Assembly: GCA_000002445.1 (NCBI GenBank)
Contig: CP000066.1
Location: forward strand, 1,376,001-1,440,000
Origin: Trypanosoma brucei
Lineage: Eukaryota
Direction: 5' to 3'
Length of the DNA stretch: 64,000 bases
In this document: one piece after another, positions 13,072 to 54,605 of the stretch
Layout of the letters: every line of letters begins with the position of its first letter
Numbering within the stretch: position 1 is the first letter of the stretch
Notes under the pieces: generated by a model
What the model was told of the DNA's origin: nothing
The model's database searches: none
The model's input: only the letters and a program-made list of their open reading frames with translations
Position numbers and translations under genes: made by a program

Positions 13072-16000
13072 ATGTCTATGCACCGTGACTTACTTCGAAT
13101 AAGGCGGCAGACGTCGAACCTTGTCTCGTCACCCTCGCCTCCTTCCTCACGTGCCAGCCCTCGTGCAAGGGTGAGTTCGGCTAGAGGGGAACAACGACAA
13201 GGTGCTAGTGAAGCCGTGCATGTAGCAGTTCGTGTGCGGCCTTTGTCTGTCAATGAGGCGGGACAAGATGTCATCGTTTCGATGGATCCGTCAGCGAAGA
13301 AGATATTCGTGAGGAACCGAGGCGAGGAGCAACAAGAGTTTCCTTTTGAGTTGCCCGTATGGTCTTGCGGTGGAAATGCGCTAAACGGCTCGCCGCCGGT
13401 AAGTCAGGCAGCACTGTACAAAATGGTTGGGCAACCCCTTTTGGACCACGCATTTGAGGGCTTTAACAGCACACTTATGGTATACGGTAGCACAGGCAGC
13501 GGAAAAACTTACACAATGATGGGTGACATGGATGGCGGCTTTCTGGGTGAGGACGAGGATGTGCTCAACGATGGTGAGGAGGGCATTGTCCCACGCCTAT
13601 GCCGTGAGATGTTTCAGAAGATCAGAGATCGCTCGGTCAGCTTGTCTGACGGGGGAACGCTGACGTGGGATGTGCATGCCTCCTATGTGGAGGTTTATTG
13701 TGAGAAGATTAGCGATTTACTGAATAACGGTGCCCCTGTCACTATTCGTGAGGTGATCACGGATAACGAAGCGCACTTTGCGCTCAATGGTGCGCAGCGG
13801 GTTAACGTCCGTAATTCAGCGGAAATACTGCATCTCCTAAAAATTGGTAACAGACACAGGAAAACAGCCTCTACGGCCATGAATGAGCGCAGTAGTCGTA
13901 GTCATGCTATATTTGTTGTGGAGCTCACCGAGATGCTTGTAGTGAGGGGACCCGATGGTGAGTGTGTCGGTGCCCCAGGCAAGTTCCTTACCGTTCGCCT
14001 CGTTGATTTGGCGGGTAGTGAACGCGTTGGGGAAGCGGGCATGTCGGGACAGCTATTCAAGGAGGGTGTTGATATTAACTGCAGCCTCTTCACCCTGGGT
14101 ATGGTAATTGAGGCTCTTTCGGATCCTAGTCGACGCCATATGAGGCCACCATACCGTGACAGTACGTTGACGAAGATTCTAAAGGACGCATTTGGTGGAA
14201 ACAGCAAAACCACGATGATTTGTACCATTGCCCCCACGGAGGCCCAACGTGTGCACACGGTTCAAACACTTCAGTACGGGCTTAAGGCGCGACGAATTGT
14301 GAACAAGCCATGTGCGAAGAGAGGACCGTCAGCTAAAGAGCTTCGTAAGGCCAGTGAGGAGATGCTTAGTTTACGCCAGAAGCGCAGGGAAAGGCAACCA
14401 CAAGGCACTGGCTTGGAGGAATCGTATGCTGATCTAAGGCGTGCTGGCGACGGAGGCTTACATAATGGGGGTGCTTTACGTCATTCTGAGAGCTCGTCGG
14501 AAGGCAAGGAGACTTCTCTTGGCGGCTCCAATTTCGCTACAGATGAGGAGAGGGACCGTTACAGGAGGAAGATGGAAGAGCTGGAAGAAGAAATTGAGCG
14601 TGCGAGGGCGAGATACAGAGAGCAGGGGCGGGAGCTGCAAAACATAAGGAGAGAGAGTGCGGCTGAGGCTGAGGTGCGTTTAAGGGCGTTAGAAGCCCAA
14701 TTCAATGAGAAGGAAAATCATTTGAAGCGGAAAGGTCACGAAATTCAAAGGAAGCACCGTGATGCGGAGAGCCGATTGAAAGAGTTTAAAAATTTTTCGG
14801 AGGAGCGCATTTCTGACCTCCTTCGTGCACAGGGGGAGCTGAAAGATAAGTTACACGAGAAGGAACTTGCAGTCGGGCAGCGTGAGCGGGAGCTGCAGGA
14901 GGCCCAGAGTCGTGCCGAGGAGGAGGTTTCCCGTTTGCATCAGCGCATGATGCAGCAGGAACGAAAATGGCTTGAGCGCCATAAGGCTTTGGAAGCTGAA
15001 ATTTGCGCACAGGAAGACAAAATGAGGGACCGATTGCGTGATGCTATGGAGAGAATGCGTAATGTGGAAGAAGTTGCAGCACGTCGCGAGAGTGAGCTTC
15101 ACCGCAAGTGGTTAGATGCCCAGCAAGCGACCCGAGAGCTTCACCACAAGTTAGCTGAGAGCGAGGCAGAAAAGGCGCGACAAATATCTCAGGATCGCCG
15201 GGAAACAACCAAACGCGAGTCTGAACTTGCCCATAAATTGGAAGAAACTGAGCGCGGCCGAAAGGCCCTCGAACGTGAGGCGGTATCGCTAAAGACTGAA
15301 TTGGATGTGTTGAAGGAAGACTACGAGATGCTCGCTAAAAACAGCAGGGAGGGTTGTGATGCGGAGGCGCGGCTTCTCCCCCTTGAGGAGGAACTAAAGA
15401 GGCGAGAGGAGCGGCTGCAGCAACGCGAGGAACAGGCCCAGGCATCACTCGATGAAGTTCTAAAGAAGCAAGAGGAACTGGACCGCTTACACCTCGCAGT
15501 CATTGCCAAAGCAGATGCTATTGAGAAGGATGCGGTTGCCGCACTTCGGGAAAGGGAGAGTCGCCTTCAGAAGCGTGAAGATGAGCTTAAGAGCTTGGAG
15601 CATGAGTTGGAGGCACGCTCCGCGGTTTTGGATGTGGAGGCCAAGTATAAATCAATGGAGTACGATACGAAGGAGAGTGGGGCAGAGGCTTTAGCTTCCC
15701 GCGAACGCCGCGCCACAGAACTGCTTCAAGATGAACTTCAGGAAGCATTGCAACGTGTTCATCTCGACATGAAACAGAGGGAAGAGAAGTTTGATCGAAT
15801 GGAAGATGATATCAAGCGATGTCGTGAGCAGTTGGAGAATCTCTACAACGAGCGGGATGAGATGCTTAGGCGTGCATCCACATCCTCCGCTGGACGCAGC
15901 TGCGTGTTTGACTCGCCGCTTCCCGTTCCTCCACGGGGTTGCCGAAGATGCAGGTCGGGTACATCGTGGCCGTCCAACTGTAGCACGATGGGGACCGGGG

Positions 16001-17856
16001 AGGAAAATGATGCGTCTCTCAGTGGGCGGCAGTTCTCTCCTAACCAAAGCAGCGCGTCGCAGCAAGAACCGCGCTGCTCAGAGAACGGGGTTGAGGGGGG
16101 GAGGTCGTCTGAACTGCGTCCGATAAGTGCTCTTGCGGGGGAGTCGGTTTGCTTATGGCTCAAGAATATGCTGATCACTATGGAGGAAAGGAGCCGCGGC
16201 TTACTTGAGGATTTGTGCTATCATGAATACAGTGTCCTCGAGCGGATGACGTCCATCGGCTCTCTTTTTTCGTTTGGCGAAAATGCTCCCAACACGAGGA
16301 GCCCTGAGGTGGCCGCCAGGGTGGTTGACCGTACTTCGGTGTCTGCATGTAGTGACCATTTGCGCGGTGGTTTTCGACTTGGATCAATATGTGGTGTCGT
16401 GCCCCATGATGCTCCTTGCGTGCCTAGCCTCATGCATACTGAAGCGGACTGCGGTTTAAGAGATGCAGCATCGGAACATGAACAACTTGCCCAGCGTATA
16501 GTCGCGTTTGAACGGCTGCAGCATCAACGTGAGGTCGAGTTTCAGCAGAAGGATGAGCAAATCAGGGAATACCTAGTTGAAGTGGAGGCGATGGATCGTG
16601 AAAGGATGGCGATGTATCGCTTAAAGGAGGAGGAACACGAGGCTGCGGCTGCACAGTTGCAGATGGCAAAACGTGAGTTTGACCACCGTGTTAATTGCAT
16701 GCAGCAAACCCTTTTTTGCCGCGGCGCGCAGCAACACGCTGAGTCCATAGTCTTGCAGGAGGCCGCTGAACGTGAGAACATTTTTCGGCTATTCAACATT
16801 CAACTTCACAAGATTTTCGCCCATGAGAGAAACATGGCGCACCATACGAACTGTGTGGACTTGTTGCGCCAGAGAGAGGAGGTGATCACGCTTGAGGAGG
16901 CACAACTCCAGAAACGTATAAGTCAGCTAAAGGACGAGGAGGATGAGTGGAAAAGACGTCGTTCCACCGAGGAGACGCAGATACTCACGTACCTATTGGA
17001 GCTACAAAACGAAGATATGCTGCGCAAGCAAGCCATTGGGGAGAAGGGAAGCAGAGAGGACACCGCGAAATACTGCGAAGACGCCGAACTCGGGGTTGCG
17101 GGTTTGTGTAATGTGATGCATCGAGTAAGGGATCACACGCAGAAGTGTGAACTTGCGGTACAAAAGATGGAGAGTGAACTGGAACAGCAGGCAGATGCGG
17201 AGAAGGTCTTGGAGGAACGTGAAGCTGCTGTTGAACGGCGCCGTCGTGAACTTTCCACCAGCATGGAGTCTCGGGAGCGTTCCCTTTTGGACAGGGAAAT
17301 GGAACTGGAGGAGTTGACTCGTCGGCTTAAAGGTGACATACAAAAACGTGAACTTGCGATACAAAAGATGGAGAGTGAACTGGAACAGCAGGCAGATGCG
17401 GAGAAGGTCTTGGAGGAACGTGAAGCTGCTGTTGAACGGCGCCGTCGTGAACTTTCCACCAGCATGGAGTCTCGGGAGCGTTCCCTCTTGGAACAGGAAG
17501 TGGACCTACGGAAACTGTCCACTAAAGCAGGGGATAATTGTCGTAAACGTCCGGGTTCTCGTGTGGCACATAATCAGGAAGGTTCCTACTACGTTGACAT
17601 CAAGAAACTTCTGGAGGTCTGTGGATTTCAACTGCCGGGTGGAAAAGTTGAATTCCCGGACGGCGCTGACACACCGATTGAACTGACCGATAACCTTATC
17701 GACGTTATCGAATCACTACGACGCCAGCTAAAGGTATGGATTCAAAAGTATCGTGTGCTGAAGTCAGATGAGAAACTGGAGTGTGAACGCTGTTTGTGGC
17801 AGAATAACCGTGGTGCCACTGTGTGCCGATGCTGCGGCAATGCTCAACTTGTGTAA
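13072..17856 (+). CDS. Kinesin-like protein (1594 aa): N-terminal motor domain, very long coiled-coil stalk, C-terminal RanBP2-type zinc finger
   Basis: The motor begins VAVRVRPLS. P-loop GSTGSGKTYTM, switch I NERSSRSHAIF and switch II LVDLAGSERV are all present. Charged heptad-like sequence runs from about residue 430 to 1500. C-terminus CERCLWQNNRGATVCRCCG fits C-x2-C-x3-N-x6-C-x2-C (RanBP2 ZnF). Confidence 0.9.
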   Translation: MSMHRDLLRIRRQTSNLVSSPSPPSSRASPRARVSSARGEQRQGASEAVHVAVRVRPLSVNEAGQDVIVSMDPSAKKIFVRNRGEEQQEFPFELPVWSCGGNALNGSPPVSQAALYKMVGQPLLDHAFEGFNSTLMVYGSTGSGKTYTMMGDMDGGFLGEDEDVLNDGEEGIVPRLCREMFQKIRDRSVSLSDGGTLTWDVHASYVEVYCEKISDLLNNGAPVTIREVITDNEAHFALNGAQRVNVRNSAEILHLLKIGNRHRKTASTAMNERSSRSHAIFVVELTEMLVVRGPDGECVGAPGKFLTVRLVDLAGSERVGEAGMSGQLFKEGVDINCSLFTLGMVIEALSDPSRRHMRPPYRDSTLTKILKDAFGGNSKTTMICTIAPTEAQRVHTVQTLQYGLKARRIVNKPCAKRGPSAKELRKASEEMLSLRQKRRERQPQGTGLEESYADLRRAGDGGLHNGGALRHSESSSEGKETSLGGSNFATDEERDRYRRKMEELEEEIERARARYREQGRELQNIRRESAAEAEVRLRALEAQFNEKENHLKRKGHEIQRKHRDAESRLKEFKNFSEERISDLLRAQGELKDKLHEKELAVGQRERELQEAQSRAEEEVSRLHQRMMQQERKWLERHKALEAEICAQEDKMRDRLRDAMERMRNVEEVAARRESELHRKWLDAQQATRELHHKLAESEAEKARQISQDRRETTKRESELAHKLEETERGRKALEREAVSLKTELDVLKEDYEMLAKNSREGCDAEARLLPLEEELKRREERLQQREEQAQASLDEVLKKQEELDRLHLAVIAKADAIEKDAVAALRERESRLQKREDELKSLEHELEARSAVLDVEAKYKSMEYDTKESGAEALASRERRATELLQDELQEALQRVHLDMKQREEKFDRMEDDIKRCREQLENLYNERDEMLRRASTSSAGRSCVFDSPLPVPPRGCRRCRSGTSWPSNCSTMGTGEENDASLSGRQFSPNQSSASQQEPRCSENGVEGGRSSELRPISALAGESVCLWLKNMLITMEERSRGLLEDLCYHEYSVLERMTSIGSLFSFGENAPNTRSPEVAARVVDRTSVSACSDHLRGGFRLGSICGVVPHDAPCVPSLMHTEADCGLRDAASEHEQLAQRIVAFERLQHQREVEFQQKDEQIREYLVEVEAMDRERMAMYRLKEEEHEAAAAQLQMAKREFDHRVNCMQQTLFCRGAQQHAESIVLQEAAERENIFRLFNIQLHKIFAHERNMAHHTNCVDLLRQREEVITLEEAQLQKRISQLKDEEDEWKRRRSTEETQILTYLLELQNEDMLRKQAIGEKGSREDTAKYCEDAELGVAGLCNVMHRVRDHTQKCELAVQKMESELEQQADAEKVLEEREAAVERRRRELSTSMESRERSLLDREMELEELTRRLKGDIQKRELAIQKMESELEQQADAEKVLEEREAAVERRRRELSTSMESRERSLLEQEVDLRKLSTKAGDNCRKRPGSRVAHNQEGSYYVDIKKLLEVCGFQLPGGKVEFPDGADTPIELTDNLIDVIESLRRQLKVWIQKYRVLKSDEKLECERCLWQNNRGATVCRCCGNAQLV
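17147..17488 (+). repeat. Near-identical tandem duplication inside the kinesin stalk: two copies of about 141 nt with a 201-nt period
   Basis: 17147-17286 and 17348-17487 are almost base-for-base identical, with one visible difference (gcggta versus gcgata). They encode CELAVQKMESELEQQADAEKVLEEREAAVERRRRELSTSMESRERSLL twice, 67 aa apart. Confidence 0.9.

Positions 17857-31458: not shown

Positions 31459-31498
<40 letters not shown>
31459..31498. repeat. (AT)20 microsatellite
   Basis: 40-nt perfect AT dinucleotide run. Confidence 0.95.
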
Positions 31499-31501
<3 letters not shown>

Positions 31502-31543
31502 ACACGATGTATATGGCACTAGGTGGGGTCTTGGTTTTGTCCC

Positions 31544-31587
31544 TTTGTTTGTTTGTTTGTTTGTTTGTGTGTGTGTTGTTGTTGTGC
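31544..31587. repeat. Compound (TTTG)n-(GT)n-(GTT)n microsatellite
   Basis: tttgtttgtttgtttgtttgtgtgtgtgttgttgttg. Confidence 0.9.
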
Positions 31588-32123: not shown

Positions 32124-35100
32124 ATGGGAATACAAGGTGATTTGGCTCTTGCGGTAGAGGGAGCGCGTAATGGTACCGCTTCTTTTGACGACAGCCTTCG
32201 GGCAACTACGGATGAGCGTGGCTCATGTAGTATTGAAGCAGATAGGCTGCTATTTGTAAATACAGCGCTCCGTGCTATTCCTGGTCGGACGCTCTGCACC
32301 TTCTTCGCCCCTATCATGGGTGTCAAGCGCAATCTCCTCAATCGGAGACGACTCACGGAGCAACACATGTTATCTGACCCAGTGAAAGCGGAGAGGTTGT
32401 ACAAGGACGCTATTCGTATTCTTACTAAGACTCTTGTAGACGCATCGGCAGAGGTATTTGACTCGGCGGCGCCGATCGACGAGAAGGAGCTGGCTGCCGC
32501 CTTGAGGGGAAAATTGGTCCCGCAGTGTTACGAACCAGGAGCAGTTCTCGCGTATCCCGGGGAATTCCCCGAGGTTATGTTTGTGCATGTTGTGTTGAGT
32601 GGAAGCGTGCAGGTTGTGCACTATCAGCTGCAGAGCCGGAGAATGGGCTTCTCTGAGGGTAGTAGAAGGCAATATTTTGTGTCTAATGAAGTACTGAGGT
32701 TGAGTGGGGCCCTGGGACTTCAACCGGAACTTTTCAAATTGATCAACGCGGCACCGGAGCCGCTCAGTGACGGTGCGAGTGATATGGCTTCTCTTTCCAA
32801 CGTTTCGACCACTGCTACCCGCACAATGCGGCGCGTCTCGCGTATGATGGGACAACCCACACTCCAAGCAATTCGAACGGAGTTGAACCGGGCCCCATAT
32901 GTTCTTAGTGCACAGGAAGCACTTGGATTTGAGCCTTTTCGGCTCACCACAGTTACCGCTGAGGCAACGGGTCCATCTGGAAGGGGGGGCGAGTCGTCCC
33001 CGGATTCACGCATAATTCAGACAATGAGGATCCGTGCGAGGGACCTCCACAAAGCTCTTGTCCAGATGGCACTTTCTCATGCGGGAAAGCAGCGAACTGC
33101 CACATCACCAACGGCATCGAGTCGGCACACCTCTGCATTGATGGAATGCATTTCTGTGGCTCGAGTGAAATGTATATGCCGTCATTACCCACTTAACGAG
33201 ATTCTCATGCGTCAGAGCTGGTTGTTGCAGGACACTCCAGCCTACACAATAAGGGCTCTGGTGACGCAGCTAGCCCCTCGTTCGTACTTTCCAGGGGAGG
33301 TCATTCTTTGTCCCCACTCAACAAACAGACACCTGAGCTTCTTGCGGCGTGGCATAATGACTATTGAAGAGGTGCCGCCACCGGACCCTTCTAGGCCTAA
33401 TGCATGCCAATGCGGTTCTCTTTCTGGAGGGAATGTTCTGCAGGAGGTTCCTCAGGGTGCGTCGTTTGGCGAGTTGTCGGTGCTGTTCGGCGAACCTAGA
33501 CAGTTTGTGCTTCGTGCAAAGACACCGTGTGATGTTTGGTCCCTCTCACGACAGAGTTTTGCGGCAACTATCAGGCGTGATGATGCCCTCCGGGCAAGTC
33601 TGCTTTCGAAAGCCGCTGCCCTCCGTATGCGGTGGTTGGGAGAACAGCGGTACACTACGGTACTGGCGGACAAACTACGCGAATGTTGCGAACTCTTCCG
33701 CCACGCATCCGATAGTTTTATCCGTCTCATACAAGAGCGAGTGGAGCCTGTTGTGTATCCACCGGGGAGATTGCTAACGTCAACCTCTGCGCGCTGCATG
33801 GAGATGCTGATCATTACTCATGGTAAGGTTTCATCAATTGTTGATGGTGTGGCAGAATATGGCCCGGGGAGTGTCATTGGGGAACCAACTATAATCCTGC
33901 ACCGCTGGCCCCTTGGACTCGTCTCGAAGTCCATGGTGGAAGGATGGAAACTTACCCGACATCAGTTGCGGGATGCACTTGAGCGTGTGGAGGTGCTGCG
34001 TCAGCACTCTGGTGAGGTTGCAGGTCACGTCCAACAGCTCATGCAGAGTATATTTGCTCCCCCCGTCCCTCCATGCGGCGTGGATGCCGTTGGGCGGTCG
34101 CGGATGCCCTTGGTGGGACCACCTCCTTATGGGAACACATATTTCGAATACGCGGAATGGCTCGCAGAGGGTCAACTGAAGGCTCTTTGCTTTAAGCATC
34201 GCGAATACGTAAACTGGAAGGACATTTCTTACTCTACACTGTCTGGACAAGGTAAGAAGAAGCGGGGCAAAGTTTTTAAACTTTCAGAGACGTTTGACGT
34301 TCCTACGGTTGGTGATCACCGTAGCTCGCTTCCGGCATTAAGGCCCGTGACTAAACCACATGCACCGAAGCATAAGAGGAAGGAGCAGCCACGCAAAATT
34401 CGCTTTGCTTCCGCAGGGAGCACTTTTCCGTTTCACATTAATCCTGTTATTGGAAGGCAGCTTGTTGCACACCCGAATTCTGCAAAGCAACCTGTAGCCG
34501 TCCCCTTCGAAGCCGATCCATTCTTGGCGAAGCAGCGAGCCCTGACATCCGCCTTTGTGGAGAAAACTTTTAATGGTCCTCTGCCTCAGCTGCAGCAGAT
34601 GACAAATCTTCTAGAGAATCGTGACAAGTTGATGAAGGTGGAAGCGAAGCAGCACAAGCTAAATGACTCTAAGCAGGAGCGTATGAATGTAATTGACTTA
34701 ACTGAGTCAGGTGGACTCGCGCCCGTTCACATCTTTCTGCACGGGAGCAATCCCCGCGTGCACATTACAGTGGAAGAAGCGGTGGCCGTGGGGTACGTAC
34801 TACAGTTCCCGGACACCAAACGCATTCAATCGTGCGTCTCAAACATCGATTCGGACGTGACGCTTGGATTGCCGCAGCACCGGCAACGCCGGAGAGATAT
34901 GGCGTTTATTCCAAATGATCGACATCCTCGTTACTGTTTTCTCTTTGCCGCCTCTCAGCTCGGAGAGAGGAGTGCGGAAGAAGTTCTGCTTTACGAGGCC
35001 GCTGTACAGGAGGCGGAGAGCAAAGAACGAGCGCAGCATCTCACTGCACTTTTGGTGGCGCAGCTGCCAGAGAAGCACCGACCGTCAGCGGAGCAACATG

Positions 35101-36365
35101 CTGTAATTCCCGACGCAGAAAATACCGCAACGGGGGAGTGGAGGGGGGTTTCGATGCCTGTCACCTCTCTGAATCCTACCGTACCGGGAAATGCGGTCTC
35201 ATCGCGCCGAAGGTCTTCCTCGCCTCAAGTGAAAGATGCAACTGGTGAAACATTCCTACAGCATCTCCGCGACAGCCCCGAGCAGGCAATGAGTAAGATG
35301 CGCATGAAGTTTCAAGTTTCCGCTAATGCCGTTGAAGAAGTTGATGGAAGCAAAATTATTGCCACTCGGGCGAGCGGTGATGTCACGCCCCTGGCCGTTA
35401 GTGGCGCTGAGGGTTCCGACCAAAAGTTTGACCTGCTCGACCGTCTGCGCAGTGCGACAGCGCCAGTAGAGGGCATCAACGAGGGCGGTGCCGGCGAACT
35501 CCCTCCGCGAAGACCCAATGCGGATCCTGATGAGAAATCAGATAGTGGAACACACAGTGAAGGTGAACACACTATGGAGAAGTTCTTTAAGAAGGAAGAA
35601 ACCCCAGTCTTTGTTGACGGTTATGGGGAGCTCAGTACGGTACAAAGCAAATCCACTGTCGAGGTTGCAGCTACTCAACCCACAGTTCCTCCAACCGCGC
35701 GCGGGGAACCGAGTGAGAATTGGTTCACGGATTCACCACCAATACCTGGCGCCAGCAACACTACATGCGCATGGATGCCGCAGAACTTCACCATGCCTAC
35801 TGTTAGTGAGGCAACGGCGACTATGCGTCTGATCCAAAGTGATGTGGACGGCCTCAATGCCGTTGCGCAGGAGCAAAGGCGCGAGCGCTTGCAGCGGCGC
35901 AATATTCCCGGTGCTGGTGTCTTCGATCCTACCGCTTCTAATGTGACATCTCTTGAGTCACAGCGGTTGGTGGACGAGTGGGTTGCTGAATATCGTGGGC
36001 ACTCACGTGACCCTATGTGTCCTGCCCAGATTCCGCCACTACTGCTCGCAGAGGCTGGCACTGATTATCTTGCTGAAGAGTTCCGTCACACTCGGCGCCA
36101 ACATGTGGTTGCTGTGAAGGAAGCGCAGGGTGTTGAAATATGGCGTGGTGAGGTGGATGCACGTGCGCGTCGGGAAGGGAAGAATCGCCAGGATTCCAAT
36201 TCCCCCGGCGGCGGCAAAAGTGTTTTGGCAGTTATAGGAGGTACTAAACTTGGGTTTCCCGCGAAGCCGCTACGCAATCCAACAGCAAATATGAGCGCGG
36301 AGGAGTACGAGCGGTGGGTCAGTGAGCGCGACGCACTGTTTGCTTCAGCTGATGGTCGCCAATAA
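32124..36365 (+). CDS. Large protein (1413 aa) with multiple cyclic-nucleotide-binding-like domains and no kinase domain
   Basis: A phosphate-binding-cassette-like motif FGELSVLFGEPRQFVLRAKTPCDVWSL, matching the PKA-R consensus FGELAL...PRAATV. At least two further beta-barrel-like segments (GAVLAYPGEFPEVMFVHVVLSGSVQVV and GRLLTSTSARCMEMLIITHGKVSSI...GSVIGEP). The C-terminal half is low complexity. Confidence 0.6.
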   Translation: MGIQGDLALAVEGARNGTASFDDSLRATTDERGSCSIEADRLLFVNTALRAIPGRTLCTFFAPIMGVKRNLLNRRRLTEQHMLSDPVKAERLYKDAIRILTKTLVDASAEVFDSAAPIDEKELAAALRGKLVPQCYEPGAVLAYPGEFPEVMFVHVVLSGSVQVVHYQLQSRRMGFSEGSRRQYFVSNEVLRLSGALGLQPELFKLINAAPEPLSDGASDMASLSNVSTTATRTMRRVSRMMGQPTLQAIRTELNRAPYVLSAQEALGFEPFRLTTVTAEATGPSGRGGESSPDSRIIQTMRIRARDLHKALVQMALSHAGKQRTATSPTASSRHTSALMECISVARVKCICRHYPLNEILMRQSWLLQDTPAYTIRALVTQLAPRSYFPGEVILCPHSTNRHLSFLRRGIMTIEEVPPPDPSRPNACQCGSLSGGNVLQEVPQGASFGELSVLFGEPRQFVLRAKTPCDVWSLSRQSFAATIRRDDALRASLLSKAAALRMRWLGEQRYTTVLADKLRECCELFRHASDSFIRLIQERVEPVVYPPGRLLTSTSARCMEMLIITHGKVSSIVDGVAEYGPGSVIGEPTIILHRWPLGLVSKSMVEGWKLTRHQLRDALERVEVLRQHSGEVAGHVQQLMQSIFAPPVPPCGVDAVGRSRMPLVGPPPYGNTYFEYAEWLAEGQLKALCFKHREYVNWKDISYSTLSGQGKKKRGKVFKLSETFDVPTVGDHRSSLPALRPVTKPHAPKHKRKEQPRKIRFASAGSTFPFHINPVIGRQLVAHPNSAKQPVAVPFEADPFLAKQRALTSAFVEKTFNGPLPQLQQMTNLLENRDKLMKVEAKQHKLNDSKQERMNVIDLTESGGLAPVHIFLHGSNPRVHITVEEAVAVGYVLQFPDTKRIQSCVSNIDSDVTLGLPQHRQRRRDMAFIPNDRHPRYCFLFAASQLGERSAEEVLLYEAAVQEAESKERAQHLTALLVAQLPEKHRPSAEQHAVIPDAENTATGEWRGVSMPVTSLNPTVPGNAVSSRRRSSSPQVKDATGETFLQHLRDSPEQAMSKMRMKFQVSANAVEEVDGSKIIATRASGDVTPLAVSGAEGSDQKFDLLDRLRSATAPVEGINEGGAGELPPRRPNADPDEKSDSGTHSEGEHTMEKFFKKEETPVFVDGYGELSTVQSKSTVEVAATQPTVPPTARGEPSENWFTDSPPIPGASNTTCAWMPQNFTMPTVSEATATMRLIQSDVDGLNAVAQEQRRERLQRRNIPGAGVFDPTASNVTSLESQRLVDEWVAEYRGHSRDPMCPAQIPPLLLAEAGTDYLAEEFRHTRRQHVVAVKEAQGVEIWRGEVDARARREGKNRQDSNSPGGGKSVLAVIGGTKLGFPAKPLRNPTANMSAEEYERWVSERDALFASADGRQ

Positions 36366-36943: not shown

Positions 36944-39199
36944 GTGCGCCGGGTTGGACCCATGGCGCACTATGATGAGTGGCTCATGTCAGTTGACGGG
37001 CTCGATTTCCACGACGAGGATGACAGCTATTTTAATGAAACTTATGCAACGGAGGATGAGCCTTCTCTCCGGACGGGTAGTGTCTCTTCTCTAGACCAGT
37101 TCGATGTGGTGCTGTGCCTCGTCGACTTTCAACAACGCATGTTCCAAGGTGTTGTTGCGCATGATTGCAAGAACCCATTTGCCGGTGGAGCAGAACAGGT
37201 ATACGACGATATCGCCGAGGTGAAAGTGAAAGAAACCCCCACAGTGTTCGAAAAGGCAATCTGCTGCGTTCAGCAACTGTACAAGGACAAGGGGATATCT
37301 GACAGCAACGATATGGTTGCGTTGGTGCTGTACAATACAAGGGAATGCACACATCCTGATTACCCTGGTGTATACGTCTTTCATACTTTTTGCTCAGCGG
37401 AAATACAATCTGTACTGGATTTGGAGGAACTTGTAGCTGCGGGGAGGGTACCGTCAGCGGGATATGAAAATATTGTGACGAAGATTGGCCATTCAACTGA
37501 AGCCAAGTCTCATCTCGGGGATGCGCTGCGGGCAGCCCGGCATTTGTTTTCCCAGCTGCCTTCCGAGGTCAAACATCGTCGAATTTTTCTCTTCACAAAC
37601 GACGTGAACCCACATCGCGGTGACGAGGAGCTTTTGCAGAAATGTGCTATCCAAATCGAGAGCTTGTCCTCTGGGGGAGTGGGCTTGGTGTGCTATGATA
37701 TGAGCCCCACTGCCCTTCCGTCACCGGCGGCTTCAACGCAATCGGGAGAAGCGGCTGCAATGAGTGAGCGTTGGGCAACACAGTTCGGCGGTGTGGACGA
37801 GTTTTGGAGTGCTCTTACGGGTGCGGTACCGAAGGCAACAAACAGTTCACGGGTTGGCACTATTGATATTGTTCACCTGAATAGCGACGATAGCGTTATG
37901 CTCGGAGCGCTCTCAACGGCAGTCCGCTGGCGCACACACCCACGGGGAGCCTCTCAAACGACAACACTAACTATTGGTGTAGGCGCAAAGGGCTCGGCAC
38001 TACCAAGACTGACAGTGGGTATGTATTTCCCGATGACAAATGCGCAGCGCCGATTATCGAAGTGGTTGGATGGACGCGCAGGTGAAATGGTAATGCTTCG
38101 GCAGCGTGCGGTGGGAGTGGGGGCCCCTATTTTGCTGCCTTGCCACGCGGGGAAGAGTGGTGCGCCACCTGCACATATCAGTACGGGGCAGTTGGGCAAG
38201 TCACGTCCAAGCACGGGACCGGGGACGTGCCCAAACGTTCCTCTAAGTTGTAAAAAGCATATCGCCGAGGTCGTTGGGGCGGGATTAACTCTCGGCTTTT
38301 CCATCATATGCTTCAAAAACGCTGATGACGTTCTGCACCCTCAGTACGTCCTGGGGAAGTCGTGCGTCCTCCACCCAGATCCGCAAGACGGTAGCGATGG
38401 CTCGCTTCGACTTTTCATTCGGTTGGCTCGAGCGCTGAAGGAGCAGCGGAAGGTTGCGATGGCGCAGCACATTACGCGCTACGCCACTCCTCCTCGTCTT
38501 GTCGCACTTGTGCCGCCCGGGCTCAACGGTGATCATATGGACACGGCTAGTTTCCCTGTGATGCACGGTCTTGGTTTGTACGTCGTGCCTCTCTCGTATG
38601 CTGACGACGTTCGTACCACCCCTCGATCCCCTCTCTTCGGCGATGCAACGAAACCTATGGAACGTGATATTGCTCTTGCACAGCGACTGCTGGCCACGCT
38701 GCCGTCTAAGTACAATGTGAACGTAGTTCCCAACCCTGCTTTGGAGCTACGCTATAAAGCTATTGAGAGTATTGTGCAACAGACACAGCAGCAGAGTGGG
38801 TTGTCAAAGGAAATTCCAGGGGTAGCTCCGTTCTCGCAACTGTCAAAGGCAGTTGATCGGACGTGGGGTGATCGTGGGGCTATGGCAAAATACGGCTCTG
38901 TGTTTGATGAGTTTAAGGCGGTATTGCTCCCTTCGTACAACCGAGACGAAACGTGTGGTCCTAAGACGAAAGCGGCGCGGAATGTGAAGGCGCGAGCAGA
39001 GTTGGCTGACGAGGACATCAAAGGTGTTGAAAGAATAATATCTGCCGTCGAGTCGGCGTTTCGGTTCCAGTCTATGGGGATGCTGACTGAACCGCAGTTG
39101 AAGGAGTATTTGCGCGTGATGGAGGGCGGTGCCTTTGGAGTCCGGAGAAATCCGGATATCATTCAAGCTGTGATATCTCAATTGCAAGGCGACATTTAG
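36944..39199 (+). CDS. KU70: Ku70 (ATP-dependent DNA helicase 2 subunit 1) homologue: vWA-like N-domain, Ku core, C-terminal SAP domain
   Basis: DVVLCLVDFQQRMF aligns with human Ku70 DSLIFLVDASKAMF. HRRIFLFTNDVNPHRGDE aligns with HKRIMLFTNEDNPHGND. LVALVPPG...MHGLGLYVVPLSYADDVR aligns with FVALVPQE...PPGFQLVFLPFADDKR. The C-terminal LTEPQLKEYLRVMEG is SAP-like, and the SAP domain separates Ku70 from Ku80. Confidence 0.85.
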   Translation: MRRVGPMAHYDEWLMSVDGLDFHDEDDSYFNETYATEDEPSLRTGSVSSLDQFDVVLCLVDFQQRMFQGVVAHDCKNPFAGGAEQVYDDIAEVKVKETPTVFEKAICCVQQLYKDKGISDSNDMVALVLYNTRECTHPDYPGVYVFHTFCSAEIQSVLDLEELVAAGRVPSAGYENIVTKIGHSTEAKSHLGDALRAARHLFSQLPSEVKHRRIFLFTNDVNPHRGDEELLQKCAIQIESLSSGGVGLVCYDMSPTALPSPAASTQSGEAAAMSERWATQFGGVDEFWSALTGAVPKATNSSRVGTIDIVHLNSDDSVMLGALSTAVRWRTHPRGASQTTTLTIGVGAKGSALPRLTVGMYFPMTNAQRRLSKWLDGRAGEMVMLRQRAVGVGAPILLPCHAGKSGAPPAHISTGQLGKSRPSTGPGTCPNVPLSCKKHIAEVVGAGLTLGFSIICFKNADDVLHPQYVLGKSCVLHPDPQDGSDGSLRLFIRLARALKEQRKVAMAQHITRYATPPRLVALVPPGLNGDHMDTASFPVMHGLGLYVVPLSYADDVRTTPRSPLFGDATKPMERDIALAQRLLATLPSKYNVNVVPNPALELRYKAIESIVQQTQQQSGLSKEIPGVAPFSQLSKAVDRTWGDRGAMAKYGSVFDEFKAVLLPSYNRDETCGPKTKAARNVKARAELADEDIKGVERIISAVESAFRFQSMGMLTEPQLKEYLRVMEGGAFGVRRNPDIIQAVISQLQGDI

Positions 39200-49965: not shown

Positions 49966-52900
49966 GCATCTCTGACGCTCATTTCTCCCTTTTGAATTGT
50001 GGAGCGAGGGAGATGGTTGCGGCGATGTGCAAACGGTGAATGCACAAGAGAGAAAAAAGCGAAAAAATAATAATAATTCTAAAGTGTCTGTAGACATGAC
50101 TAAGGAGAGAAAACCTCTCCCTCTACATTTCACCTTATTGTATTCCATTTTATTTCTTTACTTAACAAAAAAAGAAAATAACTGTAAGTGACTTAACTAT
50201 ATTCCCTTCCCTTTAAACCTGTTTTCATCCCCTTTCATTCCCTTTCCTTATTTTTCTCGTTATTTTTAAAAAAAAAGCTGTGTGTGCTGCTGGGTGTGTT
50301 TTTATACATTAATTTATTTTCATGTTGCAATATTTCCTCCCTCTCATCTCTTTTCTGCATTCCACGGATTCACGTGCGTTGGGGTAATGAAAGAAGAAAA
50401 TCTCAATTTCTGATGGTGGAGTCAAATCCTCCACTTTTTTATGTTTTATGGTATGTTTTATGGTATGTTTTATTGTTTTTTTTAATTGTTTTATTATTTA
50501 TTATTTTTTTTCCCCCATTTCAAAATTCGTTCGACCCACATTTGTGTTGATGCTTCGTTTCATTGAACCCTTTTCTCCCTACTCTCACTCTCACTCTCAC
50601 ACGCACACGCACACGCACATGCACGATTATACGAAAATATGTGAAAGTTATATATTTATTTATGAATGTGCTTATTTTTTGGTTAATGCAACTTCTCAAC
50701 CCCCCTTTTCCCCGTTATTATTTCACATGTACCGTTTTTTAAGCGATGCGACGCACTTACACTCTCTGCATGATGAAACGGAGTTTCGCGACACCCCATT
50801 TTAAAATTTTTATTGTTTATCTTTTTTCTTTTTTTTGCTCCTATAAATGTAGTTTTTACACAATATCACATAATATAATTTAATATGACTTCACATTATT
50901 TAATACAATCTCATTATTTTTCTTTTTTTTTTTGTGTGTGTGTGTATGTGCGGTTAAACGACCCTCTATGAGGCAGTTGCTTGTTGTCAATATCGTTATT
51001 TGTATTTTAAAACGAAAACAATAAGGGAACTGCAAAGGAACAGACAAAAAGGAAAAAAATAAAATAAACAACAAGAGGACACTCACAGAATAAACCGAAT
51101 AAAATCCAGCATTCAATAATAAAACAATGACAACATCAACAGAAAACAGAACACAGAAGGAAACACGAACAGAAAATAGGAGGAAAACAGAACCCGTTGA
51201 CAAAAAATAAAAACAGAAGAAAAAAAACACAGAGAGAAAAAGAATTAGTCAATATACCTCAGTATAAAATGAAATATTAACGGAAAGAATATGTTATGAT
51301 TTTGCCCGTTTGTTCTTTCTTCGATGCCGTTGCAATAATGGTAAAAATGATAATAATAATAATTAAAAAAAACGTTTTCCCCTCCGATATTTTTATTTTA
51401 TATCCTTCCTCTTTTTTTTTTTTGCTTTGCATTTTGGTTTGCACATAACTTTGTGCAGTTCACGTTCACACGATGGCGCTGCTGCTCACAGGCACTCAAC
51501 GCATCCACTTCAAGAAGTGAGAAGATAAAAAAAGAAAATAAAAATGAAGCTATCAAATCTGCTCCACCCATACAATCCACGACTATTCTTACATACTTAC
51601 ATTTTTTTCTTTTAAATAAATAAATAAATATATATATATATATTCTTTTCTTGTTGTTGTTTTTGTTCACATAAATATCAAATAACAAATAATAAATACA
51701 TTCGTTTTACTATTTATCCAATCACTTCCGATTTTCACAAATGACTTTGTTTCGCTTCGATACCCTTCAAAACACCGCTGCGTGGGACGGATTCAAAAGA
51801 ATAACTTGCAGACGACTAGCGGCAATGGGAGGAGGAAAAAAAAAAGACAAAAAGAACTGACGCACACGAGTTAGAAGTTGATAACTGTTGTGAGAAGGAA
51901 GAAGAAGAAGCAAAGGGGCGGAAAAAAAAAAGGAGACAAACAGAGCAACAACAACAACAACAGCTAATTTTCTCATTATTATTATTATTGCTATTATCAC
52001 TATTGTTATTTTTGTTTTGCCGGTCACTAGAAGAATATACACCCGTATTGAAATAAATAAAATAAGTAAATTTTAATTTGTTTTGTAACTATTATTTCCC
52101 ATATTTTAAGCGACCAAATATTTACATCAAGGCAGAACACTTTGGATGATATGATCTCCAAAAGAAGGAAGATAATGCAATTGTATATGTATATGCATAT
52201 GTATGAGTGTGTGGGTTTTATAAAAGAAAGCACGTGACACAATTAATGGCAGAAAAGAGGGAGAAAATGCATAAAACGAAAGTCGCTCCAATGAACAATA
52301 ATGAAATATAGGACACAAAATATTAAAGATGGGGGATCAAATCGAAGGGCAGAGGGGCGGGGAGGGAGGGCGGAGGAAAGAAAAAAAAAAGATAATAGCC
52401 TGATAAAAAGAAAATACGAATATATATATATATATATAACTATTTATATTTTATATGTTTTTTTTTCTTTTTATAACGTTATCGCGTGATGACATGAATT
52501 ATTGGGAGGGTGTGGGTTTTTATCGTTTCCTTATTTTCTTTTAATTTCAGAAAAAAGAAGTTGTTTTTGTTTTTTTATTTTTTAATTTTACTTTTTAAAT
52601 TATCAGGTATGTTCTCATTACCTCTCCTGCGATGTGACTACACGCCTTTATGTTTCACTGAATCCAAATTCTTTCGTGTCTTTACTTCCATTTTTTTTTC
52701 TCTTATCCCCCCATATATTTACTTTAATTTTTATTATTTATCGGAACATGACTTAAGCGATTACCTGACTTGGATATCAGTCAACTAAGCACGCACACAC
52801 ACACACACACACATAATCAAGTGAATTAGAAAGAAGAACAAAAAAAATCAAAGAAAGCAAATTTAAGGATACGATAAGGGCAGATCAAAGTGAAGAAGAA

Positions 52901-53043
52901 AAAAAACAACAATAACAACAACAATAATAATAATAACAGCAAAAAAATAAAAATAAAAAGGAAAGAGTATAAATTATTCACTCAAATTGCCCACTGTTTT
53001 TTTTTAATTTTGCTTACTTGTTACTACTTGAACGCAATCACAT
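49966..53043. other. 3 kb AT-rich low-complexity spacer with alternating strand composition
   Basis: About 50200-50900 is T/pyrimidine-rich on the + strand, 51000-52400 is A/purine-rich (long runs such as aaaacagaacacagaaggaaacacgaacagaaaatagg), and 52400-53000 is T-rich again. It contains (CA)n at 52791-52814, (TA)n at 51633-51646 and 52424-52440, and (cactct)n/(cacg)n at 50581-50625. No ORF longer than 120 aa. Confidence 0.7.
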
Positions 53044-53640
53044 ATGCCCTCCGCTGAAACACTACTGAAGGATTTGTTCGGTTCTCATACCGTTGAGTTG
53101 CTTCGGCAGGATGGCAAAATGGTACCCGCAACAACTGCTCTTGAAGGTAAGAAATATTTGCTTGTATATTTCTCCGCCTCATGGTGCCCTCCGTGTCGTG
53201 TTTTCACACCACAACTCGCCACATTTCATGAGCTTTTCAGCGCAAAACACAATTTTGATGTGATATTTGTTTCACGAGACAAGGATGAGTCCTCCATGTC
53301 TGCTTATTTCTACAATCCAAAGTACAGCAGTTTATCCGTAAGTGGTGGCGAATGTTCTCATGGGGACTGGCTTGCATTGCCCTTCACACAAGCGCAGACT
53401 GTAGGAAAGGAAATAATGAGCCGATATGGTTTAAACACGATTCCTAATATTCTTTTGTTTGACCTCAGCACGGAGGAGTTGGTGACAAGTGAGGCACGTC
53501 AATTGATTGGATCCAACTGCCGGTCGGCTGAAGGTTTCCCGTGGCGTGGCGCCTCGGCTCCGGTAATTTCGTTTCAAGGATTGGCAACTGTATTTGTTGT
53601 GTTTTTGATGTTGTATCAATTTTGGCAGTCGTGGAGTTGA
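53044..53640 (+). CDS. Tryparedoxin-like thiol-disulfide oxidoreductase with a C-terminal hydrophobic membrane anchor
   Basis: Tryparedoxin signature YFSASWCPPCRVFTPQL (WCPPCR active site) in a thioredoxin-fold-sized protein. C-terminal hydrophobic GLATVFVVFLMLYQFW immediately before the stop, i.e. tail-anchor-like. Confidence 0.8.
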   Translation: MPSAETLLKDLFGSHTVELLRQDGKMVPATTALEGKKYLLVYFSASWCPPCRVFTPQLATFHELFSAKHNFDVIFVSRDKDESSMSAYFYNPKYSSLSVSGGECSHGDWLALPFTQAQTVGKEIMSRYGLNTIPNILLFDLSTEELVTSEARQLIGSNCRSAEGFPWRGASAPVISFQGLATVFVVFLMLYQFWQSWS

Positions 53641-54250
53641 GTGAACTGCCTAATTGGGGTAATAAACTGATTTTATTTCCTCTTGCCCATATTTGTGTGG
53701 TATCCCTTTAGTAGTTATGCGCGTGGGAAATCAGCATGAATGGTTGAAAGGGAATTGTGTGGGGATTTTTTTTTGGGGGGAGGGGGAGATGACCAGTGAT
53801 TACGCTGGAAGTATTTTTTTAAAATTTTCTTTTCTGCTATTTCGTGTGTGTGTGTGGGCGGGCACATTGTTATTTGTGTTTGATATAAGTCAAAGGAATA
53901 ATGAATGAATGAATGGGATGCGTGAGAGCTAATTGTGTATTGTGGTGTGTTCTACTCTGTTTTATTTTTGTCTTCGTATCTTCATCCATCGTATTTGCCA
54001 TTGGGTCTGTTCTCCTTCCCATCATTACTCGTACTGTCTTTGAAGACTTGCGCCCCTTATCTTGAACTTTAAATCTTTTTTCTTTGTTGCTGTCATCACC
54101 TTGCGTGCGATGTTCGTGCAGGAAGCGCCGTGAAAAGCAACAACAACAACACCAGTAAACTTCAGCGAGAGGGAGGCAGGGATATGTGCATGAGCGATGT
54201 GTGAGTGTGAAAAAGTGTAGGGCGGGTTGCAGTCACAACATTGTTGTTTA

Positions 54251-54395
54251 AATCTCCTTTCAGTATATGTCTTACTTCTTCTTTTCCAACTCTGCTGAAG
54301 CTCCTTTTGTTTGTTGCTTTTGCATTTGAATTTCATTCGTAACCCCTTCTTTTTTGCGTCATTATTGCTCATCCTTTCTTTCCTTCTTTTTACCA
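54251..54395 (+). promoter_or_regulatory. Extended CT-rich tract upstream of the XPB gene; candidate splice-acceptor region
   Basis: ctcctttcagtatatgtcttacttcttcttttccaactctgctgaagctccttttgtttgttgcttttgc...ctttctttccttctttttacc, 200-350 nt upstream of the ATG at 54606. A further tract ctttctttctttcttatttttttttttttg lies at 54508-54538. Confidence 0.4.
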
Positions 54396-54605
54396 TAACT
54401 TGGGTAAAAGAGGTTGCAGAGTTGTTCTCCCTTCCTTGCTCCTCTTTCGAACACCTGTCGAGAATAAGGGAAAGGGAAAAAAAAGAGAAAGAGTGTGTGC
54501 CTACCTCTCTTTCTTTCTTTCTTATTTTTTTTTTTTTGCGTGGGCAACTCATTTCGTTGGGTTGGAACTACTCACACGCTTTCTCAATAAACACACAGTC
54601 ATTGG

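Follow-up and report, generated by a model that had tools for sequence, protein, structure and literature searches.

The locus raises the question of whether a long open reading frame (ORF) on the forward strand of the window, the 64,000-nucleotide stretch of Trypanosoma brucei DNA that was analysed, encodes a component of the cAMP response, as an earlier note had proposed from the letters alone. The ORF (32124..36365, +, coordinates including the stop codon) is real and is listed with an ATG start and the 1413 amino acids given in that note. Judged by the ORF listing, near-identity to a T. b. gambiense protein and the gene name used in published papers, this coding sequence is that of T. brucei FLAM6 (Flagellar Member 6, Tb927.3.5020), and the kinetoplastid origin assumed in the note was right. 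The T. b. gambiense DAL972 protein is identical in 1408 of 1413 residues (five differences), the L. donovani orthologue (P0021) bears the name Flagellar Member 6, and the L. mexicana orthologue (P0019) has 1898 aa, the same length as the FLAM6 entry in the PMC11971395 supplement. Tb927.3.5020 is FLAM6 both in PMC9896412 and in that supplement; the T. cruzi orthologue is TcYC6_0109380, and the L. mexicana orthologue is given two identifiers in the PMC11971395 supplements (LmxM.08_29.1700 and LmxM.08_29.1040). The next ORF downstream, directly adjoining, is Ku70 (Tb927.3.5030; 36944..39199, +), which carries the Ku_N and Ku Pfam domains, is functionally separate from FLAM6 and serves as a synteny anchor; the pair matches the expected Tb927.3.5020/Tb927.3.5030 neighbourhood, and Tb927.3.5030 is listed together with Ku70 in PMC8311970. 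Full-length orthologues were found throughout Trypanosoma, where identity is 52-55% across 98% of the length, and in Leishmaniinae. The gene model is uncertain only in its exact start codon, as conservation is poor over the first ~35 residues.

Over its whole length FLAM6 matches the Pfam cNMP_binding profile (PF00027, curated cut-off 27.5 bits) with 63.4 bits and an E value of 2e-17 in three stretches, far beyond chance; taken domain by domain, the scores are 39.6 bits for domain 2, 27.1 bits for domain 3 and 11.9 bits for domain 1. Given this match, the orthologues of full length in both groups and published work in which the protein was experimentally detected, tagged and deleted, it is hardly conceivable that the ORF arose by chance, that the gene model is wrong or that the domain match is spurious. 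All other Pfam families across the 1413 aa at E <= 10 were noise only, and neither Pfam nor NCBIfam found any catalytic family, kinases, cyclases and phosphodiesterases included, in agreement with the note. FLAM6 is a non-enzymatic axonemal protein whose N-terminal half is predicted to hold three tandem cyclic-nucleotide-binding (CNB) fold modules, each seen as a barrel-plus-helix unit in the AlphaFold (AF2) model. The top Foldseek matches of that model are to Plasmodium PKG (~560 columns, E 3e-19, identity only 12-19%), which has four tandem CNB domains. Judged by the residues at the predicted binding positions, the canonical cassette is kept by domain 2 only. The multi-CNB architecture read in the earlier note thus stands, but the large scaffold is not an undescribed one, being a named protein with published localisation and knockout phenotypes. 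Its CNB annotation (PF00027 and SSF51206) has already been published (PMC11971395 supplement), and published accounts give it "a" or "two" CNB domains; the third, cryptic N-terminal CNB-like module is the addition of the present analysis.

Domain 2 (aa ~338-507; 33135..33644, +) is a canonical CNB domain that has helices on its N-terminal side and hinge/lid helices at aa 476-507; its Pfam match lies above the cut-off and covers profile positions 2-89 of 89. The phosphate-binding cassette picked out in the note, FGELSVLFGEPRQFVLRAKT, is present at aa 448-467 (33465..33524, +), as seen in the translation, the orthologue columns and the alignment to structures. Gly449, Glu450 and Arg459 are each conserved in 24/24 orthologues and lie at the canonical positions in gapless alignments with T. 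gondii PKA-R (5J3U, a cAMP co-crystal) and the SthK CNBD. Neither a weak sub-threshold hit nor the absence of Gly-Glu and Arg, which the note had named as grounds against its claim, was encountered for domain 2. The mean majority fraction of the orthologue columns is 0.89 over this cassette compared with 0.67 over the N-terminal region, and the cassette follows the PKA consensus quoted in PMC10354285 save for A to S, L to V and a final A to F. Two positions past Arg459, the orthologues have Phe, Tyr or Cys where the consensus has Ala, and judging from the cassette such residues could alter or occlude the predicted pocket. These bulky residues favour a reading in which no CNB fold of FLAM6 binds nucleotide and the protein serves the proximal outer dynein arm purely as an architectural adaptor, its loss altering the beat mechanically. 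That reading is considered unlikely: besides Gly449, Glu450 and Arg459, 12 more cassette positions are invariant in the 24 orthologues, against an overall mean column identity of 37%.

The departures from the consensus past Arg459 would also suit a domain 2 pocket whose ligand is not cAMP but, say, cGMP or, as with trypanosomatid PKA-R, a purine nucleoside, a proposition that we regard as quite improbable. In the cGMP-selective domains of PKG and CNG channels, Thr or Ser stands right after the cassette Arg, whereas the residue directly after Arg459 varies in FLAM6 (H12/Q3/N3/D2/E2/S1/T1 among 24 orthologues). Kinetoplastid PKA-R has been repurposed for nucleosides, as the T. cruzi PKA-R structures with guanosine and inosine illustrate (PMC10354285); however, nucleoside-binding PKA-R has Thr318 at the cassette Arg position, and the cAMP-independent T. 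brucei PKA-R lacks the Arg (T318R being part of the engineered variant E311A/T318R/V319A in PDB 6H4G), whereas FLAM6 has it in all orthologues surveyed.

The loops of domain 2 also contain a conserved set of Cys/His positions, C396-P397-H398 ... C428-x-C430 (aa 396-431; 33309..33416, +), in which C396, H398 and C430 are found in 24/24 orthologues and C428 in 23/24, with His in the exception. This pattern was absent in Bodo and the other second-tier relatives and is trypanosomatid-specific. The second-tier euglenozoan relatives (Bodo saltans B6DTH5/CUG90335, a Sulcionema specki transcript and environmental sequences) are large proteins with Pfam CNB domains that share the tandem of domains 2 and 3 with FLAM6 at 25-33% identity; one of them has a C2 domain as well. 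Like FLAM6, they show the signature FGE-x-S in the cassette and HRW in domain 3, but they have neither the CPH...CxC pattern nor the domain 2 loop insertion, and the Arg is lost in some. Because these matches span only FLAM6 aa ~330-640, relatives of domain 1 and of the C-terminal islands were not detected among them.

Domain 3 (aa ~512-627; 33657..34004, +), recognised from Pfam, the orthologue profile and AF2, is a CNB fold with a non-canonical cassette. Its Pfam match when taken alone (E 4.2e-6, aa 543-621) falls just under the cut-off, its orthologue profile matches solved CNB domains (SthK CNBD, E 3e-7, full domain) and its pLDDT is 73-91; the CNB fold is supported despite the narrow miss of the curated threshold. 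In the cassette-like segment VIGEPTIILHRWPLGLV (aa 584-600; 33873..33923, +), placed by the SthK alignment and the orthologue columns, the canonical Arg column is occupied by Pro596, so that the Arg is missing here. H593, R594, W595 and P596 are present in 24/24 orthologues and E587 in 20/24, the latter mostly not kept in the second-tier relatives. Beyond domain 3 a further conserved region (aa 636-700; 34029..34223, +) with helices at 636-643 and 673-691 was noted from identity, invariant columns (F644...Y703) and pLDDT (77-88); identity among Trypanosoma reaches 78% over aa 641-680.

Towards the N-terminus, a helical region (aa 35-126; 32226..32501, +) precedes the first CNB-like module, with AF2 helices at 35-51, 55-81, 86-111 and 120-126 (pLDDT 64-94); counts over the orthologue columns of aa 70-79 also show a basic motif of RRxT type to be conserved at aa 74-78. 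Domain 1 (aa ~120-325; 32481..33098, +) is a strongly diverged CNB-like beta-barrel by predicted fold and below threshold by sequence, its Pfam match covering the first half only (aa 135-173). The barrel is interrupted by a predicted disordered insert of ~75 aa (aa 171-245; 32634..32858, +), with pLDDT < 50 at 171-228 and 234-245 and a length that differs among orthologues; after removal of the insert, 5/7 orthologues scored 13-20 bits. No match to the PDB was found with the domain 1 profile, and hhalign related domain 1 to domain 3 with an E value of 4e-5 over beta1-3 only. The order of strands and helices agrees with that of domain 2 in the AF2 model (pLDDT 83-94), and a short helix at 263-267 lies between strands, as expected of a cassette helix. 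It forms part of the cassette-like segment AQEALGFEPFRLTTVTAEA (aa 263-281; 32910..32966, +), where E265, G268 and P271 are conserved in 24/24 orthologues and position 273 is K12/R8/H2/P1/G1. The CNB fold of domain 1 is thus suggested mainly by its predicted structure, together with the weak profile matches and the span of the Foldseek alignment. The note had claimed at least two CNB-like segments besides the cassette-bearing one, a claim borne out for domain 3 and carried mainly by the model for domain 1. That domains 1 and 3 are both clearly degenerate fits a protein in which none binds nucleotide, but such pseudo-CNB domains (domain 3 of FLAM6, CNBD-B/C of CARP1) are typically without the Arg or Glu that domain 2 retains.

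The C-terminal 600 residues, described in the note as low complexity, proved to be otherwise composed, with a Shannon entropy of 3.5-4.0 bits in 50-aa windows, equal to that of the N-terminal half. The region is instead largely predicted to be disordered (pLDDT < 50 in 400/693 residues), with several confident helices and with three islands of strong conservation (aa ~865-945, ~1241-1320 and ~1361-1400). The most conserved of these (aa 867-943; 34722..34952, +) has 26/84 columns invariant in 15 orthologues, with low AF2 confidence and no relatives in Pfam or the PDB, and these ~80 residues are a candidate partner-docking element. Confident helices are predicted at aa 1221-1260 (35784..35903, +; pLDDT 83-93, conserved columns Q1238...E1254) and at aa 1392-1412 (36297..36359, +; pLDDT 88-94, conserved W/R columns near the C-terminus).

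FLAM6 resembles PKA regulatory subunits and Plasmodium PKG, its best sequence and structure matches, in having tandem CNB folds with hinge helices. It differs from them in its C-terminal half, which is long, predicted to be mostly disordered and set with conserved islands specific to the lineage, and in having no dimerisation/docking, kinase or GEF domain that Pfam could detect in association with the CNB domains; FLAM6 as a PKA regulatory subunit, PKG or Epac-type effector was rejected on this ground. Trypanosome PKA-R, a well-folded CNB protein unresponsive to cAMP (PDB titles; PMC10354285), does offer a precedent for a FLAM6 without nucleotide binding.

The earlier note had also suggested looking among the described cAMP response proteins, where FLAM6 was not found: Tb927.3.5020 is missing from the 11 gene IDs (CARP1-11) in Table 1 of PMC10354285, and membership of FLAM6 in the CARP family was rejected, a result that again suits a purely architectural adaptor. 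CARP1 (Tb927.11.16210) is the best functional parallel to the way in which FLAM6 may work. Like FLAM6, it is a non-enzymatic flagellar protein confined to Euglenozoa, and of its three predicted CNB domains only one has the consensus cassette, the others being without the Arg (PMC10354285). It is a separate gene of 705 aa in which the canonical domain comes first rather than second; its binding of cAMP has been demonstrated by experiment (EC50 ~30 nM; PMC10354285). The cAMP-resistance RNAi screen picked out CARP1 but not FLAM6, which is absent also from the supplementary text examined. No published test of FLAM6 nucleotide binding was found in the literature searched.

Published work places FLAM6 on the proximal axoneme (PMC11971395). 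In L. mexicana its localisation depends on pDC1 and pDC4 of the proximal docking complex and on an outer-dynein heavy chain, and its deletion gives a higher tip-to-base beat frequency (PMC11971395). A second CNB-like protein, pDAP1 (Tb927.11.15730 / LmxM.31.2530), requires FLAM6 for localisation (PMC11971395); it likewise belongs to the proximal axoneme, is associated with the docking complex and has a CNB-like superfamily assignment, and its deletion has the same effect, a raised beat frequency, but unlike FLAM6 its 958 aa (supplement table) have the SSF51206 assignment only and no Pfam match. The authors of PMC11971395 prefer a mechanical (shear-force) role over signalling, which accords with a non-binding adaptor, and think it unlikely that sequestration of cAMP accounts for the phenotype.

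A cAMP-response role of FLAM6 is put forward here as a hypothesis from its domains, as it has been in the literature. Domain 2 would bind cAMP, with Glu450 contacting the ribose 2'-OH and Arg459 the cyclic phosphate; occupancy would shift the hinge helices (aa 476-507) between domains 2 and 3. Domains 1 and 3, both degenerate, would act as allosteric or structural partners, and the conserved islands and helices of the C-terminal half would hold the protein on the outer dynein arm, the docking complex and pDAP1. On this view FLAM6 would be a PKA-independent, dynein-arm-resident cAMP sensor/adaptor restraining outer-arm output in the proximal flagellum. As a whole, FLAM6 with a canonical domain 2 as a putative dynein-arm cAMP sensor/adaptor is probably the best explanation. 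A stronger form is tentative: domain 2 may be a true high-affinity cAMP site on the proximal outer dynein arm, giving a kinase-free cAMP-to-dynein route, with the trypanosomatid-specific Cys/His cluster next to the cassette (C396, H398, C428, C430) as metal or redox input and the degenerate CNB folds and 80-aa island as the dynein/docking-complex/pDAP1 interface. Against a cAMP-sensor reading stand the place of FLAM6 outside CARP1-11, the Phe/Tyr/Cys for Ala, domains 1 and 3 without a canonical cassette and the shear-force view of PMC11971395.

The observation made from the sequence is largely correct and already known, FLAM6 being a named flagellar protein with CNB domains and a published knockout phenotype. 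Trypanosomes use cAMP in motility-linked behaviours, and because their PKA is unresponsive to cAMP, the true cAMP effectors are a live question; as FLAM6 is an obvious, already published effector candidate, its finding in a sequence scan adds nothing new. What the re-analysis adds is the confinement of the binding residues to the middle module, the cryptic third CNB-like module and the highly conserved 80-residue C-terminal island as a candidate docking element. Since the binding residues are kept only in the middle CNB module and are invariant in trypanosomatids, R459 and E450 offer a clean mutagenesis target. If domain 2 is indeed a cAMP site on the dynein arm, FLAM6 would provide a kinase-free path from flagellar cAMP to dynein output in kinetoplastids.

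The open reading frame of 1413 codons at 32124..36365 (+), which starts at the first ATG after a stop, is Tb927.3.5020, encoding Flagellar Member 6 (FLAM6), as the locus is called in two papers, one of them in its supplement (PMC11971395). The top database match was a 'hypothetical protein, conserved' of equal length from T. brucei gambiense DAL972. Five residues differ from the DAL972 cluster representative, none of them in a cassette: T18A (32175-32177), V393I (33300-33302), R740K (34341-34343), V994A (35103-35105) and I1118T (35475-35477). The window is therefore from T. brucei, though of a strain or subspecies other than DAL972. Full-length orthologues were found in T. grayi, T. theileri, T. 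melophagium and T. cruzi (54-55% identity, 98% of length), while those of Leishmania, Leptomonas and Porcisia are longer (1.8-2.2 kaa), the L. donovani orthologue being named 'Flagellar Member 6'. The L. mexicana orthologue P0019 has 1898 aa, equal to the length in the FLAM6 row of the PMC11971395 supplement. The L. mexicana identifier is inconsistent in that paper: supplementary files 1 and 4 use LmxM.08_29.1700, whereas files 3 and 5 have LmxM.08_29.1040. Directly downstream, the ORF at 36944..39199 is a Ku70-type gene with Ku_N and Ku domains, and since Tb927.3.5030 appears with Ku70 (PMC8311970), synteny also supports the identification. FLAM6 has been named, localised and knocked out, and its cyclic-nucleotide-binding (CNB) domains are present in public annotation, so the protein is already known.

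Every ORF in the window that reaches 250 aa lies on the plus strand, and FLAM6 has unrelated housekeeping genes as neighbours, which encode RPL4, XPB, a kinesin, an ADH-like enzyme, a PSP1-domain protein and an ankyrin protein. Such a one-strand run of unrelated genes is as expected for a kinetoplastid polycistron, and the genomic context is therefore uninformative on FLAM6 function. An Rfam scan of the whole window gave no matches. A 4.6-kb AT-rich stretch (~50000-54600; GC 0.33-0.36 compared with ~0.50 elsewhere) separates the PSP1-domain gene from XPB; it holds no ORF longer than 198 aa and no Rfam match, just short imperfect tandem repeats. An (AT)20 microsatellite and a (TTTG)8 repeat occupy intergenic positions 31459-31577, ~550-660 bp upstream of the FLAM6 start codon. 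The kinesin gene (13072-17856) encodes 1594 aa with the motor domain at aa 54-409, and at 14-16 kb the purine skew of its coding region is unusually strong (AT skew +0.19, GC skew +0.21), which a biased or repetitive tail might cause.

A single Pfam-A family, cNMP_binding (PF00027), was recognized in the whole protein, in three stretches (63.4 bits, E 2e-17), and no catalytic family, whether kinase, cyclase, phosphodiesterase, GEF or another, appeared in five sub-segments scanned at E <= 10. What the earlier note described, a large protein that carries multiple CNB-like domains and lacks a catalytic one, is therefore real and far beyond chance; that observation was essentially right and its interpretation reasonable. 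Scored separately against the curated cut-off of 27.5 bits, domain 2 lies above it (39.6 bits, whole profile covered), whereas domain 3 falls marginally below (27.1 bits) and domain 1 well below (11.9 bits, first half only). Membership of NCBIfam families was rejected, as matches were far sub-threshold (family 2B encapsulin, 27.9 bits where the cut-off is 400; CRP, 11.4 bits) and come from the CNB domain contained in those bacterial families.

The AlphaFold2 model of aa 1-720, built with 24 orthologues as input (mean pLDDT 72.8), predicts helices in the N-terminal region (aa 35-126) and after them three modules, each running through four strands, a loop, a strand, a short helix, two strands and a long helix, as in a CNB domain. 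In a Foldseek search of the PDB, Plasmodium PKG ranked first (E 3e-19, ~560 aligned columns), ahead of tandem-CNB regulatory subunits (~270-300 columns). The regulatory region of Plasmodium PKG carries four tandem CNB domains. About 45 residues before domain 1 lies a basic motif, RRRLT (aa 74-78, window 32343-32357), of the R-x-R-x-T or RRxT type, which by its sequence resembles a basophilic-kinase site; R74 is retained in 22, R76 in 17 and T78 in 16 of the 24 orthologues.

The sequence of domain 2 (aa ~338-507) is that of a canonical CNB domain. Its phosphate-binding cassette, FGELSVLFGEPRQFVLRAKT, is the motif quoted in the earlier note and is indeed encoded there (aa 448-467, window 33465-33524, by translation); it aligned without gaps in phmmer to the T. 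gondii PKA-R/cAMP co-crystal chain and to the SthK CNBD. In the alignment of 24 orthologues, with a mean column identity of 37% overall, G445-F455, E457, R459, L463 and A465 are essentially invariant. The key Gly-Glu and Arg positions that the earlier note named hold fully in this domain (G449, E450 and R459 in 24/24) but not in domain 3, where the Arg column is Pro596. Compared with the PKA consensus F-G-E-[LIV]-A-L-[LIMV]-x(3)-[PV]-R-[ANQV]-A (PMC10354285), the FLAM6 cassette departs at A->S, L->V and the last A->F (F, Y or C in orthologues), the Ser being a family signature common to more distant euglenozoan relatives. The cAMP-independent PKA-R of T. brucei has Thr at the Arg position, as the name of the T318R mutant in PDB 6H4G indicates, whereas FLAM6 keeps the Arg. 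That a ligand other than cAMP, for example cGMP or a nucleoside, occupies domain 2 appears improbable, the retained Arg speaking against a nucleoside pocket of the PKA-R type.

Conserved cysteine and histidine residues occur in two loops of domain 2, as an invariant C396-P397-H398 and, in the inserted loop, a C428-x-C430 pair (aa 396-431, window 33309-33416). C396, H398 and C430 are present in 24/24 orthologues and C428 in 23/24, the exception being His; C405, C469 and C473 are likewise conserved. The pattern is absent from Bodo and other euglenozoan relatives. From generic CNB topology, both loops and the cassette would share one end of the barrel, and the set may bind a metal or act as a redox-sensitive cluster.

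Domain 3 (aa ~512-627) has the CNB fold without a canonical cassette. Its orthologue profile matched the SthK CNBD over the full domain (E 3e-7), the alignment in which Pro596 takes the place of the phosphate-binding Arg. Within the degenerate cassette, the motif H593-R594-W595-P596 (window 33900-33911), whose Arg stands two residues before that column, is identical in 24/24 orthologues. A majority of the more distant euglenozoan relatives retain HRW, even though the Glu and Arg of a canonical cassette are not kept; Glu587 is missing in four orthologues and mostly unconserved in those relatives. Domain 3 is an old CNB module of non-canonical type. Domain 1 (aa ~120-325) is degenerate and is regarded as CNB-like mainly from the predicted structure. 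Its profile found no solved CNB domain among PDB sequences, the matches being at chance level (E ~1). In hhalign, its beta1-3 region matched domain 3 in register, at E 4e-5 and 70% probability, and domain 2 weakly, at E 0.002 and 14%. With the predicted disordered insert (aa 171-245) removed, cNMP_binding was the top or only family in 5/7 orthologues (13-20 bits, all below the cut-off), the match extending to profile positions 68-72 of 89 in three. A predicted short helix (263-267), together with E265, G268 and P271, none of which varies, and a position 273 that is mostly basic, resembles a degenerate cassette.

An exhaustive HMMER scan of 1.84 billion representatives with FLAM6 aa 1-720 separated two tiers. 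The first comprises 13 orthologues (E <= 1e-107), and by sequence the full architecture was found in these alone, the named members all being trypanosomatids. The second (E 1e-38 to 1e-20) matched only aa ~330-630, the domain 2-3 tandem, in likewise large proteins with Pfam CNB domains and, in one, a C2 domain. Its members include Bodo saltans and the diplonemid Sulcionema, indicating that the tandem is euglenozoan.

The earlier note took the C-terminal 600 residues to be of low complexity, which is not supported: the C-terminal half (aa ~720-1413) has a window entropy equal to that of the N-terminal half and contains conserved islands at aa ~865-945, ~1241-1320 and ~1361-1400. AlphaFold predicts it to be mostly disordered (mean pLDDT 52.7; 400/693 residues <50), with confident helices at ~821-850, 951-980, 1041-1060, 1221-1260, 1277-1294 and 1392-1412. 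The best conserved island of this half, of ~80 residues (aa 867-943, window 34722-34952), has 26/84 columns invariant among 15 orthologues; its profile has no relatives in the PDB or Pfam, and its AlphaFold fold is not confident. This island may serve, in a partner-dependent way, to dock FLAM6 to the dynein arm, to the docking complex or to pDAP1 (Tb927.11.15730), a second CNB-like axonemal protein.

In both T. brucei and L. mexicana, FLAM6 localises to the proximal axoneme in a docking-complex-like manner; in L. mexicana this requires pDC1, pDC4 and an outer-dynein heavy chain, and pDAP1 in turn requires FLAM6 for its localisation (PMC11971395, 2025). [quoted passage not shown] The literature thus places FLAM6 on the docking complex and outer dynein arm of the proximal axoneme, where it recruits pDAP1 and restrains beat frequency. 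A place among the described cAMP response proteins was not borne out, FLAM6 being absent from CARP1-11 (Table 1) and from the supplementary text of PMC10354285. The literature search found no nucleotide-binding assay on FLAM6. The main rival reading, a pure scaffold of pseudo-CNB folds, is in keeping with this absence from the CARP screen, with the Phe, Tyr or Cys after the domain 2 Arg and with the mechanical interpretation of the PMC11971395 authors, but the perfect conservation of three ligand-contacting residues makes it rather unlikely. We consider it reasonably probable that domain 2 binds cAMP, putatively through Arg459 and Glu450 and with a possible bearing on beat control, that the hinge helices (476-507) would pass its occupancy to domain 3 and onward, and that the C-terminal islands would anchor FLAM6 to its axonemal partners.
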